This document shows, piece after piece, positions 35,126 to 50,464 of a stretch of DNA of 64,000 bases (its first letter is position 1; each line of letters opens with the position of its first letter). Position numbers and translations under genes: made by a program. The stretch comes from Eledone cirrhosa (lineage: Eukaryota). The DNA lies in assembly GCA_964016885.1 (NCBI GenBank), contig OZ024742.1, forward strand, positions 152,210,001 through 152,274,000, given 5' to 3'. The notes under the pieces were generated by a model. It saw nothing but the letters and a program-made list of their open reading frames with translations. It had not been told where the DNA came from and searched no databases.

Positions 35126-35712
35126 CACACACACACACACACACACACACACACCCACACACACATATATATATATATATATCAAGTAAATATGTTTTAA
35201 TACAGTGAGCATGTTTGAAATTAGAAAATAGAATAGCTTTCACCGTAAGTGTGTGTGTGTATATATATATATATATATATATATATATATTCACACACTC
35301 ACGGTGAAAGCTATTCTATTTTCTAATTTCAAACCTGCTCACTGTTTCAAAACATATTTGCTTGTCATTTATACTCGCTAAGAATGATTTGAATGGAAGG
35401 AGATGGGTGATGTGTTGGTGTATATGGTAGCACAGTGGTCTGGATAAGCAAAGATGTGGGTTCACTCCCATGTACGTCAATACTCACCTTTTTCCATTTA
35501 TCTGAGGGTTTTAAACCCCATTGACAGACTAATATATATACATATATATATATATATATATATATATATATATATATATATATATATATATATATATATA
35601 TATATATATATATGTAAATGAGGTGATTCCGTCGGGAAGGTCCAGGAAAGAGAAGTGCTCTATGTAAGTTACAGAGCTTATTAGTTATGTAATAAACAAC
35701 ATAAGATTATTA

Positions 35713-35772
35713 TTTCATTTACCAGTGGTTTCTTGAAAGCAACCAATATTGGTTTCATTCATCAGAATGAAA
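35713..35772 (-). ncRNA. Type I hammerhead ribozyme
   Basis: tttcatt-CTGATGA-atgaaa...tttcaa-GAAA-ccactggt-A-aatgaaa. Confidence 0.75.
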
Positions 35773-36174
35773 AAAATCCTAGTGTCTTTATTGACAAGGG
35801 ATTTGAAAAACAAAAATATAACAGATATGAAACTGAGGCTGGAGGAAAAAAAAGGGTGGGGGGGGAGAATAATAAATAAGAATATATAACAACACACACG
35901 TACACACACACGCACACACACTCACATATACACACATATATACATATATATATACATATATACACGCATATCTACACATATATATACACAGAGACACATA
36001 AACACAGACACACATATATATATATATATATACATCCATACATAAACACACCAACATACACACACACACACACATATATATATATATATATAATGTAGGA
36101 GGTGAGTTTTCTTGTAGCACAATAAAGCAATGCAAATATCAGATAAGTACCACTCAACAGTTTATAGGACTGGA

Positions 36175-36512
36175 GTATAAATAATATAAAATTAAAAGAT
36201 AGTTAAAAGTGTTCCATGTATTTTATTATGCGCATTTCAAAAACAAATATCATGATGGGATGATATTTGCGTTCTCATCAGATAAAATAGGGAGACATGA
36301 TATGAACCTTAAAAAACACTTGCGAGCAGAGAAGTGTTAAATCAATATATGTTGATTTAACACTTCACCTCCCGCAAATGTTTTTTAAGGTTCATATGTC
36401 TCCCTATTTTATCTGATGAGAACGCAAATATCATCCCATGATGGAATTTGTTTTTGAAATGCGCTTAATAAAATACATGGAACTCTTTTAAGCATCCATT
36501 GATTTTATACTA
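36175..36512. mobile_element. Fold-back PLE terminus with ~165-bp arms, each carrying a hammerhead (36219-36289 minus; 36405-36475 plus)
   Basis: Palindrome centred at ~36348. tattttat-CTGATGA-gaacgcaaat...atttgttttt-GAAA-tgcgcat-A-ataaaata (the plus copy has tgcgctt). Confidence 0.8.
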
Positions 36513-37615
36513 TATATATATATATATACACACACACATATATATATATATATACATGCACACACACACACACACACACATATATATATATATATATATA
36601 TATGTGATAAAATGGGGAGAAAAATACTGCTGGTAGCACATGGATAACATGTAATTAAATAAGTCCCTCATCAGTGATTTGCCGACGATCATAGATATTT
36701 CATTGCATTAAAAATCATATACCTCACGTCGGTGCAATAATAACTAAATTAAGTTATTAGGACAATTAAAACGCGTAAAGCGAGTGAGACAGGAAAACAA
36801 CAAAGAGTAGAGCTAACCGTAGAGGAAGGAAACAAGCTTCATAGTTATTCTGATAGCATAAGCTAGGTTAATATATGAGCGCTTAGAAAAAAGACCTTTC
36901 GCGAACGAATGCAATGTAAGAAAGAGAGAAATTGCTTTCGTTGCGAACGGGGTGAAGTGAGGAGAGGAGAAACAGTGAGTGAGTGAGTGGAAGTGTGAGG
37001 AAGAGTTAACTGACATGACATAGGGGGCGAAAGAAAGTAGAAGAAACAGAGAGAATGAGGGAGCAGTAAGAGAGAGAGAGAATACAGATACACATGCATA
37101 CATACATACACACACATACATATACACATATATACACACATGCATACGTACTGACATATAAAAGGATACGTATGCACGCACACAAATAAGAATAAATAAT
37201 CATAGAAGGGCGTCAGATACAAATAAGCAAATAAAAAATAAGGATTAAGAAAATAAAAAAAACAAAAAATATTATTAAGTTGACAGCGATACAAGACGGC
37301 AAAATTTAAAATGAAAATAAAAATAATAAAAATAATAATAATAATAATAATAATAATAATAATAATAATAATGTTTTCTTTATTAACCACAAGGGTTCAC
37401 ATAAAGTAGACATTAAGGACAGTACAGGACAATACAGGACGGTACAAATGGGCATTTCTGCGTGTAAAAAAACAGAGGTTGAAATAAAATAACAAAGAAA
37501 AAGTCCCCAATAGGGGGGAGACTTCCAAGGGACATTTGTGGAGAAAGCCCATTAAAAGACCACAGTGGCCCTGACCACCAGGGCAAGTGCCCTCTCCCAG
37601 TTTTCCACCTTTAAT

Positions 37616-46811: not shown

Positions 46812-49800
46812 CGATATTAAACAAATGGAAACTATATTTATAAAACCATATTTATTTCGTTATATATATTTCTGGGATATCATATTAAAAATATGTTATG
46901 CCTTCCTCAGACAAAATACAATACATAAGCTGTTTTATAAATAATTAGTGACATACCTTTTGAGAATGCAACTTCCTTTTAAAAAAGTTGATTTGGTAGT
47001 GAAACTGTTATGATAGTTATATAGAAAGAAAACGAAGATGAGAAGAAGAAGGTGAAGAGATGTATGTAAATAAAAAAGAAGATGAAGAGATGTATGCAAA
47101 GAGAAAAGAGATGTATGTAAAGAAAAACAACGGAGCGAGATAGAGAGACAAGGATAGAGAGAAATACATTGATGGTGAAAAAAAACATAGTAGGCTGCAT
47201 TTTGACAGATGATCATCGTATATGTGAGAGGTTAAGGGAAGGGATACAGTTAGATTAGTGTATAGGAGAAAAAGAAAGAAAGATGATATATTTAAAATAT
47301 ATTAAAAATATATTATGTCTCATCCTTTTGAGTTATCAATTTTTATGAATTAGGCACTATAATGTAAATACCAGTATTCATGAATGAGACACATATCTAT
47401 AATGTGTAAAATAAATGACCACATGCTCAGTTTAAAAATTCTTAGGTCTATAAGCAAAATCTGAGACAAAACTTCAAACGTAAGTATATATGCATTCTCG
47501 TGAAAAATGAGAAAAGAGAAGGTTATCTCAAATTCAAGTTGATAAATAAAGACGCACATGTGAACCTAGGTGATACGCTGCACTAATTCTTATATTTCAT
47601 GAAAAACTTCAATGTGTCAGAAAAGAAAAACTTCAATGCGTTAGAAGAGATTCCACCCTACATACATTTACATACATATATACATATATATAGACACAAA
47701 ACATATAAGATATACATTAACATCTAAAACACTCATCGATCAAGCATAGAGTAGACAACAGATATCAATATTAAAATTAAAAACGCCAAAAATATCTTCG
47801 TCACTCCACAGAGTATCTAGGGACGCAAGAGAACATAGTATGCCACGCATATCGGTCATAGAATCAGAGTCAAAGCAAACAAGACCAAAATTGCTCACCA
47901 AGCCTTATTTATCAGAAATCATTCAAAACTCTTGACAAACGCTTCCCTAGAACACATAAGTATCACTCAATTTTTAATAGACATACTATAAAATGAACGT
48001 ACTCGCCCACCAAAAATTTAGCACAAAATATTAATAGAATAAATAATAGGAATCTAAAACCTAGCCAAAATACCGAAAATAGCCTAAGCAATATTCAACT
48101 AAAAAACTGTAACTGTAGAGATAGATCTAAATGTCCGCTAAATAACAATTGCTTAGTTAAAAATATAATATACAACTGTAATGTTAGAACTGATTTAAAT
48201 TCTTTTAATTATGTTGGTTCCACCTCGACAGAATTTAAACTTCGCTATAATAATCACAAAAATTCTGACACGGATCCAAATAAAAAATCATCAACATCGC
48301 TGTCAGGGCTTCTCTGGCAACTTAATCATGATACAGTTGGATATTCGATGGTTTGGAATATAGTCTCAAAAGGGATTCCTTTTAATTCCTCTTCTGAGAC
48401 TTGTGACCTCTGCGCGGAGGAGATATTCTTTATATTAAAATCTAAAAATTCCCTTAATTTACGAACCAATTTATTCAGCTGTTGCATACATAGATTGAAC
48501 TCAACATTTAAATATAAATATAAATTTAAAATGTAGTATAAAATGTAGTATATTTACTTAAGGTATTTGACTATTTGTGATACTTGGCGATAAATCTTTC
48601 GATTCCTTTAATTTTTTTTTTTTTAAAACCTTTCCGCATGAATATATAATTAATGAGATTAAATAAACTACCCTAAAATTGGCGTTGGTCCCAATCTTTT
48701 GAATAAATTTTTAAGCTGGATAAACTTCTATAATAAATATAAGAGCATTTGTAGAATAAGTTTTGAATGATTTCTGATAAATAAGGCTTGGTGAGCAATT
48801 TTGGTCTTGTTTGCTTTGACTCTGATTCTATGACCGATATGCGTGGCATACTATGTTCTCTTGCGTCCCTAGATACTCTGTGGAGTGACGAAGATATTTT
48901 TGGCGTTTTTAATTTTAATATTGATATATGTTGTCTACTCTATGCTTGATCGATGATTGTTTTAGATGTTAATGTATATCTTATATGTTTTGTGTCTATA
49001 TGTATATATGTATGTAAATGTATGTAGGGTGGAATCTCTTCTAACGTATTGAAGTTTTTCTTTTCTGACACATTGAAGTTTTTCATGAAATATAAGAATC
49101 AGTGCAGCGTATCACCTAGGTTCACATGTGCGTCTTTATTTATCAACTTGAATTTGAGATAACCTTCTCTTTTCTCATTTTTCACGAGAATGCATATATA
49201 CTTATGTTTGAAGTTTTGTCTCAGATTTTGCTTATAGACCTAAGAATTTTTAAACTGAGCATGTGGTCATTTTTTTTACACATTATAGATATGTGTCTCA
49301 TTCATGAATACTGGTATTTACATTATAGTGCCTAATTCATAAAAATTGATAACTCAAAAGGATGAGACATAATATATTTTTAATATATTTTAAATATATC
49401 ATCTTTCTTTCTTTTTCTCCTATACACTAATCTAACTGTATCCCTTCCCTTAACCTCTCACATATACGATGATCATCTGTCAAAATGCAGCCTACTATGT
49501 TTTTTTTTCACCATCAATGTATTTCTCTCTATCCTTGTCTCTCTATCTCGCTCCGTTGTTTTTCTTTACATACATCTCTTTTCTCTTTGCATAAATCTCT
49601 TCATCTTCTTTTTTATTTACATACATCTCTTCACCTTCTTCTTCTCATCTTCGTTTTCTTTCTATATAACTATCATAACAGTTTCACTACCAAATCAACT
49701 TTTTTAAAAGGAAGTTGCATTCTCAAAAGGTATGTCACTAATTATTTATAAAACAGCTTATGTATTGTATTTTGTCTTAGGAAGGCATAACATATTTTTA

Positions 49801-49965
49801 ATATGATATCCCAGAAATATATATAACGAAATAAATATGGTTTTATAAATATAGTTTCCATTTGTTTAATATCGTAAACCTACTCCAGAAACTGTCGAGT
49901 GCTTTTATATCAGTTATAAAATATTTACTCGTTGTAACCCAACGATCTTAAATAAAACTTTTGCA
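46812..49965 (+). mobile_element. 5'-truncated Naiad PLE with a ~1.1-kb inverted copy of its 3' UTR at the 5' end
   Basis: Arms 46812-47929 and 48759-49875 are near-perfect inverted repeats. The centre encodes LDKRFPRTHKYHSIFN..CNCRDRSKCPLNNNCLVKNIIY..YVGSTSTEFKLRYNNH..CDLCAEE..LNLRTNLFSCCIH. Confidence 0.9.
46853..46918 (-). ncRNA. Type I hammerhead (intact core); its mirror copy at 49768-49833 has CTTAGGA
   Basis: attttgt-CTGAGGA-aggcataacatatt..aatatgatatccca-GAAA-tatatat-A-acgaaat. Confidence 0.65.
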
Positions 49966-50358
49966 TATATATATATATATATATATATATATATATATAT
50001 ATATATATATATATATATATGTATATATATATGTATGTGTGTGCATGTATATATATATATATATGTGTTGGAGTGTTTATGTATGGATATATATATATAT
50101 ATATATATGAATGTGTGTGTATATGTATCTCTGTGTATATATGCGTGTATATATATATGTATATATATATGTATATATATATGTATATATATATGTGTGT
50201 ATATGTGAGTATGTGTGCGTGTGTGTGTGTACGTGTGTGTTGTTATATATTCTTATTTATTATTCTCCCACCCACCCACCTTTTTTCCTCCAGCCTTACT
50301 TTCATATCTGTTATATTTTTGTTTTTAAAATCCATTGTCAATAAAGACACCAAGATTT

Positions 50359-50418
50359 TTTCATTCTGATGAATGAAAGCAATTTTGGTTGCTTTCAAGA
50401 AACCACTGGTAAATAAAA
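50359..50418 (+). ncRNA. Type I hammerhead ribozyme (inverted paralogue of 35713-35772)
   Basis: tttcatt-CTGATGA-a tgaaagcaa ttttgg ttgctttca a-GAAA-ccactggt-A-aataaaa. Confidence 0.75.
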
Positions 50419-50464
50419 TAATTATCTTATGTTGTTTATTACATAACTAAATATATATATATAT

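Follow-up and report, generated by a model that had tools for sequence, protein, structure and literature searches.

A Hydra-clade Penelope-like element of Eledone cirrhosa, very probably enlarged by nested insertions into the microsatellites of its 3′ untranslated region

Introduction

A 64-kb stretch of the Eledone cirrhosa genome (contig OZ024742.1, positions 152,210,001 to 152,274,000; hereafter the window) contains a 14.8-kb region, 35615–50450, in which blocks of repeated sequence mirror one another around a core encoding the end of a nuclease. The question raised by this locus is how such an arrangement arose, and whether the process responsible could account for the (TA)n richness of the genome. 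The data presented here indicate that the region is very probably one 5′-truncated Penelope-like element (PLE) of the Hydra clade, with an inverted copy of its own 3′ untranslated region (UTR) at its 5′ end, produced in what was likely a single (TA)n insertion and enlarged from approximately 4.4 to 14.8 kb as six younger inserts entered (TA)n and (ATT)n tracts of the UTR. The observations that form the basis of this reading are the order of the blocks, the clade motifs, a one-sided tail, the relative divergences, the target tracts of the inserts and an excess of foreign DNA in the UTRs of the family.

Architecture of the host element

The genome searched comprises 3.0 Gb in 1,796 contigs. A search with block D, the outermost of the mirrored blocks, returned 1,346 first-look candidates, of which the best 40 were scored, and a search with the nuclease end returned 1,215. 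Forty copies of the host family, and then 20 further stretches, each of 9–10 kb (60 loci in all), were taken for comparison. L-numbers denote stretches fetched from the same genome as copies of the host family or of the inserts.

Self-BLAST revealed four inverted pairs: 44295–44648 with 46021–45676, 43254–43733 with 46578–46077, 37082–37359 with 46770–46537, and 35681–36092 with 50450–50014. The preliminary description of this DNA had proposed four mirrored blocks around a core at 44650–45675, and self-BLAST and pairwise alignment recovered all of them, in order, at or near the positions proposed. The parts of the host element are as follows.

35532–35613, no strand assigned: (TA)41 tract, representing the left half of the site at which the host element likely inserted
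35615–35684, minus strand: tail of the host element, approximately 70 bp, equal to the start of the family 5′ UTR and present at one end only
35685–36090, minus strand: block D, distal 3′ UTR; its type I hammerhead motif has its core at 35765 and would be cut after 35720
37082–37372, minus strand: block C2 of the UTR and an (AAT)n half-tract (self-alignment)
43252–43342, minus strand: (AAT)14 half-tract and block C1 of the UTR (self-alignment)
43562–43606, minus strand: block B of the UTR (self-alignment; position shared in other copies)
44395–44821, minus strand: block A and the head of the 3′ UTR (self-alignment; other copies)
44822–45675, minus strand: end of the host open reading frame (ORF), 5′-truncated and frameshifted, with reverse transcriptase (RT) thumb, CxCX5C linker and GIY-YIG nuclease; residues 418–709 of a relative of 715 amino acids (aa), 74–81% identical
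45676–46811, plus strand: inverted arm, blocks A, B, C1 and C2 with microsatellites (self-BLAST)
49966–50450, plus strand: block D of the inverted arm, lacking a tail; hammerhead core 50366 with a single mismatch in stem I (self-alignment)

In their unique, non-microsatellite parts the two arms differ at 47 of 533 columns (8.8%). They carry 16 and 25 private changes, respectively, in 510 columns, and share one derived base. Both lack a 170-bp block that is carried in full by L091, L093 and L095 and in part by L129. The element has (TA)n tracts at both ends.

It is apparent from the 40 and 20 fetched stretches that the order core, A1, A2, (B), C1, C2, D, tail recurs. Block B occupies the same place in L092, L093, L094, L095 and L130, and the order A-B-C-D of the right arm, without the hairpin insert (H, below) that interrupts it in the window, is present in L010 and L012. 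The blocks are therefore not four unrelated repeats that are never contiguous elsewhere, and the single microsatellite-rich 3′ UTR ending in a hammerhead motif that had been anticipated for this family is borne out by the block order kept in other genomic copies.

The 70 bp at 35615–35684, which had been counted in the span of the element and assigned to no block, is the host's own one-sided tail. This sequence follows block D in many copies and, in L152 and L153, runs on into the 5′ UTR and ATG of intact reading frames; it is on these grounds that it is identified as a PLE tail. Outward-pointing pairs of block D were found in 24 of the 60 loci, with the tail on one side only in 22 of the 24. 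According to PMC8557442, PLEs typically show inverted, 5′-truncated copies and one-sided tails, and a 5′ inverted copy is noted there for the Hydra element Penelope-13_HM. The inverted duplication in the window is an ordinary form of PLE insertion and not a special feature.

Clade of the host element

L152 and L153 each contain an intact, single ORF of 715 aa in which the RT is followed, in one frame, by a C-terminal GIY-YIG nuclease. The motifs RWK (position 41), DKT (118), YRDD (350), CSCRKPDEC (560), VYEA (580), YVG (599) and CSLC (663) are present, with CPH after LN at 684. CSCRKPDEC is a CxCX5C linker, CSLC a CxxC and CPH a CxH motif, the last two lying around the conserved E and N; no cysteines are situated between VYEA and YVG, so the CCHH motif is absent. 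The Hydra clade is defined, in the passages of PMC8557442 that deal with it, by RWK, DKT in place of DKG, CxCX5C, CxxC and CxH, and by the lack of CCHH. Its members also share a C-terminal GIY-YIG nuclease, a type I hammerhead near the 3′ end and (TA)n targets. In the host family a canonical type I motif is located near the 3′ end (descriptor match at 35765, at the level of the motif), and (TA)n flanks were observed not only at both ends of the element in the window but also, for two further Hydra families described below, at 25 of 25 ends of H and at nearly all ends of F. On these motifs, with RT upstream of nuclease in one frame and a hammerhead motif present, the host is assigned to the Hydra clade.

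The preliminary description had called the element a Naiad, a label that is not sustained. Naiads do share the (TA)n bias, tails, and tandem and inverted insertions (PMC8557442), which is the case in favour of that name. However, they are described in the same source as having an N-terminal nuclease, DKA and CCHH and no canonical hammerhead, and L152 and L153 differ in each of these respects; the probability that the element is a Naiad is negligible. The CCHH within GIY-YIG and the CX2-5CxxC linker that mark Neptune and Nematis were likewise not found in the 715-aa ORF.

Pfam reported nothing for the nuclease fragments of the window or for the 715-aa ORF, and a homologue search with the 715-aa protein returned 1,433 relatives, mostly unnamed and of approximately 700 aa, none bearing a clade name. 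The nearest named member is Hydra-1_Obim (2507 bp, hammerhead motif at 2403; PMC8557442), whose N-terminal protein sequence looks alike by eye. Described Hydras are mostly 2–3 kb in length, with the hammerhead approximately 100 nt from the end. The host family differs in being very abundant and in having a modular, insert-free UTR of 1.1–2.1 kb, about half of it microsatellite, after an ORF of 2.15 kb, and so exceeds a total length of 3 kb, a trait that is descriptive of the clade and not diagnostic.

Stretches L151–L167 represent a younger Hydra subfamily with open frames of 714–715 aa and copies 95–99% alike, which is possibly still active. Remnants of Hydra-like ORFs of other families, 35–44% identical to the 715-aa protein, were also observed in the window at 8054–8764, 14087–14308 and 27240–29219.

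Hammerhead motifs

The sense strand of block D in each arm reads TTTCATT CTGATGA, stem II, GAAA CCACTGG TA AATGAAA. Its cores lie at 35765 (minus strand) and 50366 (plus strand), so the hammerhead previously reported in the outermost pair of blocks is present, the match being at motif level. A descriptor scan of the window yielded five hammerhead motifs, whereas 20 block-shuffled versions yielded none. In the fetched copies there were 92 pattern matches, of which the core is demanded by the pattern itself; the variable seventh base differs between subfamilies. An Rfam search of 33000–53500 gave no hammerhead, the output consisting of microsatellite-driven microRNA noise and one sub-threshold tRNA.

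The young subfamily has a second, proximal hammerhead motif 280–540 nt past the stop codon. The base at the cut site is G in all nine proximal matches and A in all 83 others. Under the NUH rule for hammerhead ribozymes, G at the cut site would block cleavage, and the proximal hammerhead is therefore probably dead; it may represent a former terminus that came to be read through, or a sibling's end that was captured.

Complete type I hammerhead motifs (cores 10492 and 11049) were also found in two tandem 557-bp units, 98% alike, at 10186–11323, which are likely a retrozyme dimer.

The six inserts and their relative ages

Approximately 10.5 of the 14.8 kb consists of six foreign pieces: the ends or copies of three other Hydra families (F, E and H), two retrozyme-like pieces (G and an older fragment) and one long interspersed nuclear element (LINE) that targets (ATT)n.

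36100–36512, minus strand: insert F, 3′ end of another Hydra family (tail 36100–36175, hammerhead motif 36281, short inverted arm 36347–36512)
36606–37081, minus strand: insert G, retrozyme-like monomer of a young, non-coding tandem unit of approximately 512 bp; copies 98–100% alike, arrays elsewhere
37373–43251, minus strand: young LINE of 5.9 kb in the host (ATT)n tract, probably L1/Tx1-like as judged by domain content
43760–44007, minus strand: insert E, a Hydra 3′ end with tail whose family is related to H (11.5% divergent from it), hammerhead-like core 43945
44008–44303, minus strand: fragment of an older relative of unit G, adjoining the 5′ side of E; identity to G and to the arrays of G 70–78%
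46812–49965, plus strand: insert H, a second Hydra family represented by a very young hairpin (inverted arm 46812–47930, nuclease fragment approximately 47907–48536, tail 49875–49965)

The LINE, the fold-back now included in F, the PLE end and the right-hand hairpin had all been recognized previously. In that inventory G was missed, F was not extended to 36100, and the 'PLE end' was treated as one piece and not as two. The family of F has a GIY-YIG frame with a CxCX5C linker upstream in L231. The linker of H reads CNCRDRSKC, and its UTR of 1.3 kb has no (TA)6+ tract. Insert E appears to be Hydra by its 88% likeness to the end of H. The possibility that E is the native 170-bp block mentioned above was rejected: E is 98% identical to its own family and only about 80% to that block. 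At 44007/44008 the 3′ end of a Hydra meets a retrozyme-like fragment of the same orientation directly, with no microsatellite between them, possibly through a template switch in reverse transcription. The fragment was joined to E in none of the four other copies of E checked.

The subfamily of G has CTGATGA and lacks the GAAA half of the core, which is retained by the older relative at 44252. G shares with the non-LTR (long terminal repeat) retrozymes, as presented in the passages of 10.64898/2026.07.22.740005 concerned, a non-coding tandem unit, monomers, partial tandems, arrays and a hammerhead half-core; without the GAAA half it would not count there as an active retrozyme. An array of unit G extends over approximately 100 kb at G000:C1:81589915-81695397 (L300), with units 96–99% alike to the window copy.

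ORF2 of the LINE (1152 aa, open from 37616 to 41074) contains an apurinic-type endonuclease (APE), an RT and a zinc finger (Pfam Exo_endo_phos, RVT_1 and zf-RVT). All of 30 3′ ends and all of 25 5′ ends examined adjoin (ATT)n, from which it follows that (ATT)n is the target; relatives occupy the same (ATT)n tract of the host copies L019, L020, L023 and L092. An ORF2 of this order together with a sequence-specific target is the Tx1 combination. The Tx1 LINEs Kibi and Koshi (PMC4494074) are likewise APE-RT LINEs always flanked by one microsatellite, which is (TC)n or (TTC)n in the accounts given there and (ATT)n here; the likeness of the present LINE to Tx1 is one of domain content only. Carriage of C2 and D by the LINE through 3′ transduction was considered and rejected, C2 following none of the 29 other young LINE 3′ ends. 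After the (ATT)n, eight of the 30 young 3′ ends run into one other repeat (L064, L066, L074, L075, L076, L085, L088 and L089), and another family thus supplies a much-used (ATT)n landing pad.

Identities to the best genomic copy, taken from the top 40 hits and to be read as rough proxies for age, were 94–95% for the host, 96% for F, 98% for E, 99–100% for G and 100% for H. The LINE gave approximately 100% at its 3′ end and 98% at its 5′ end, and over more than 1 kb at best 99.1% and 96.3%, respectively. The arms of H differ by 0.7% (8 mismatches in 1115). With host arms 8.8% apart and host best copies at 94–95%, against 96–100% for F, E, G, H and the LINE, the earlier expectation that arm divergence exceeds the age of the inserts is supported. 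All of the inserts in the window lie in the sense of the host; F inserts in other copies, read by eye, go both ways.

Microsatellites of the UTR as insertion targets

Insert-free UTRs of the host family are 1.1–2.1 kb in length and 36–56% microsatellite, with 4–15 (TA)6+ tracts each; the corresponding microsatellite content of the window arms is 55–61%. Seventy copy arms reach the stop codon. The 50 with a terminal block D in the fetched DNA were counted as complete UTRs, and the 20 without it were left out. Foreign segments of at least 100 bp were found in 37 of the 50, and 71 of the 81 segments touch a microsatellite. Approximately 29 remain once eight UTRs are deducted, seven in which a shared 290-bp piece is the sole foreign segment and one in which a D hairpin is present. 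The ORFs of the 70 copies (73.4 kb) contained two breaks, one of them an inversion junction. In the subset selected on DNA, foreign DNA was present in 21 of 28 UTRs and in none of approximately 31 kb of ORF. The proposal that the 3′ UTRs of such elements serve as landing pads thus holds for the host family; its extension to all elements of this kind is not supported, given the UTR of H.

Capture of inserts into the transposing unit

In 21 of 45 arms of the older family, a 49-bp piece of an abundant dispersed repeat immediately precedes one and the same UTR block. In 19 arms at 18 loci, the two arms of L155 among them, the piece begins at an identical 5′ junction directly on (TA)n, and none of 15 free copies of the repeat (15 matches in the 400 kb of spaced genome samples described below) starts in that way. 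The carriers have differing 5′ truncation points, which argues against segmental duplication. A 290-bp piece is present in both arms of L158, L159 and L166 and in L160 and L167, which form a clade with support 1.0; its relatives elsewhere are 68–76% identical. The 170-bp block absent from both window arms, which resembles the tail of H and E, is fixed in most copies of the older family. Since foreign pieces occupy identical junctions in many independent copies, it is likely that inserts have been captured into the transposing unit.

The window also contains, at 16730–16954 and 23339–24034, copies and hairpins of the dispersed repeat, short and flanked by (TA)n, of which the captured 49 bp form one end. 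This repeat has a one-sided tail like the end of a PLE and a frequency of approximately one copy per 27 kb in the samples.

Contribution to genomic (TA)n

The preliminary description had further suggested that UTR microsatellites, doubled by inversion, sustain a self-amplifying cycle to which much of the (TA)n expansion of the genome could be attributed. There is a case for this: the UTRs are 36–61% microsatellite and rich in (TA)6+ tracts, hairpins are common, inserts are captured, a protein query gave 36,727 first-look candidates, and dispersed repeats are over-represented beside randomly sampled (TA)n clusters. This last point comes from 40 evenly spaced 10-kb stretches (400 kb), in which 10.4% of bases are microsatellite-like and 4.0% are (TA)6+; the flanks of (TA)n clusters matched other samples in 219 of 516 cases, in comparison with 116 of 634 control segments. 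The excess indicates that many (TA)n tracts belong to dispersed repeats in general.

The share of the host family is, however, small. Within 300 bp of its UTR blocks lay no more than 15 of 297 (TA)n clusters (809 of 21,467 bp), some of them through doubtful matches, and no more than 1,484 of 41,697 microsatellite bases; clear host fragments were found in three of the 40 samples. Young copies of the inserts seldom land in the host family: apart from matches to the ubiquitous 49-bp repeat, which were set aside (three of the F flanks matched it as a free repeat), UTR sequence of the host family flanked one of 23 other H copies, none of 24 for F, none of 29 LINE 3′ ends and none of 24 LINE 5′ ends. 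The UTR of H, moreover, has no (TA)n tract to offer. Most tracts adjoin other repeats, and the splitting of targets by many families is a better candidate. It is concluded that the insertion cycle is real locally and supplies only a few per cent of the (TA)n tracts of the genome; as an explanation of much of the genomic (TA)n it is unlikely.

Neighbouring sequences

Just to the left of the element are a tRNA-like sub-threshold match (35409–35479, 27.4 bits, likely the head of a short interspersed nuclear element) and a small fold-back (35174–35373). Remnants of other PLEs, with cysteines in the GIY-YIG core of the nuclease, are situated at 33070–34516 and 50468–51382, the latter adjoining the right (TA)n end of the host. 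A satellite array occupies 53513–64000, mainly of a 42-bp unit in approximately 232 copies, preceded by variants of 36–39 bp.

Discussion

Two other histories of the mirrored region were weighed against a single Hydra insertion. The right arm could be a later addition: an inverted duplication, the outcome of gene conversion, or a sister copy that inserted independently at the 5′ end of the first. The arms have only one derived base in common and are as close to L129 (5.4% and 6.5%) as to each other, so the sequence alone does not prove a single template. Against a later addition stand the exact head-to-head junction at 45675/45676, which has no microsatellite; the one-sided tail; the same anatomy in 24 of 60 loci and in the PLEs published in PMC8557442; and the loss of the 170-bp block from both arms. 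A young source, in addition, would give equal counts of private changes. Later addition of the arm is thus regarded as quite improbable. That the four blocks are unrelated, microsatellite-targeting repeats mirrored by chance might be entertained in a genome dense in short (TA)n-flanked repeats, where block D often stands alone. Solitary copies of D are, however, the expected product of 5′ truncation, and the single order of the blocks downstream of the nuclease in many loci, with L010, L012, L094, L095 and L129 as direct counterexamples, leaves chance mirroring very little probability.

Several points also weigh against the interpretation of the region as one Hydra element enlarged by younger inserts. 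The inverted arm of F is approximately 10% divergent both from its partner arm and from other copies, which puts its age level with that of the host arms and blurs the order of F and those arms. The fragment at 44008–44303 carries no date, and the top-hit identities give the other inserts approximate ages only. Loci entered the ORF sample through matches to the ORF (20 of them for long frames), and insertions in ORFs are therefore under-represented. The hammerhead is a motif match, and the predicted fold of the monomer is not a hammerhead fold; because of this, and because Rfam reported none, its activity is predicted only. The tree of 500-nt ORF ends is weakly supported and does not separate carriers from non-carriers of the 49-bp piece. 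The direction of origin of the captured pieces (into the UTR or out of it) is one that we infer.

If the region is a single enlarged Hydra, its history may be pictured as follows. The GIY-YIG nuclease with its CxCX5C linker would have nicked a (TA)n tract, reverse transcription would have been primed near the hammerhead or tail, and the inverted arm would have formed in the same event as the main insertion. Microsatellite-targeting elements would then have struck the UTR tracts as ordinary, not privileged, targets. An insert in the UTR of an active source copy, lying upstream of the terminal hammerhead, would be transcribed and copied with the element, and once captured would lengthen the UTR and add new (TA)n flanks in all daughter copies. 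We consider it reasonably probable that this is a Hydra lineage whose 3′ UTR grows as if by a ratchet: captures would be carried upstream of the terminal hammerhead while internal hammerheads lose their cut site, each capture would add (TA)n pads that are spread to thousands of daughters and doubled by 5′ inversion, and the passengers would define subfamilies.

Parts of this scheme have precedents. The capture of flanking DNA by PLEs is known (PMC6431247), as are the pile-up of microsatellite-targeting elements (PMC5907723) and the carriage of simple repeats by transposable elements (TEs; PMC7878876). In the SaTar arrays of guayule and rice (PMC5907723), unrelated elements accumulate, each targeting the microsatellite left by its predecessor; those are DNA transposons in non-nested, linear arrays, whereas here retroelements nest in the tracts of a host UTR. 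In penaeid shrimp (PMC7878876) simple repeats move inside retroelements, Penelope among them, and raise the genome-wide content of such repeats; the capture of nested inserts into a PLE UTR is not described in the passages concerned. In the open-access full-text literature, no report was found of a Hydra UTR whose captured nested inserts mark subfamilies. What is likely new is the long, modular UTR with its probable capture ratchet; PLE inversion, (TA)n targeting and nesting are ordinary.

Taken together, one locus and 60 sister loci show microsatellite-targeting retroelements feeding each other. Tracts of (TA)n and (ATT)n travel in the host's own transcript, later elements make use of them, and some of the passengers become heritable. 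This offers a concrete answer to how TEs carry simple repeats, a question left open in the passages of PMC7878876 concerned, while the host family alone does not explain the (TA)n richness of the genome. There is also a warning for repeat annotation, in which such a family would be split into many 'unknown' and 'simple repeat' pieces. The locus is a datable record of several waves of TEs, and the results suggest that Hydra elements are far more abundant in the genome of Eledone cirrhosa than the few described families imply.

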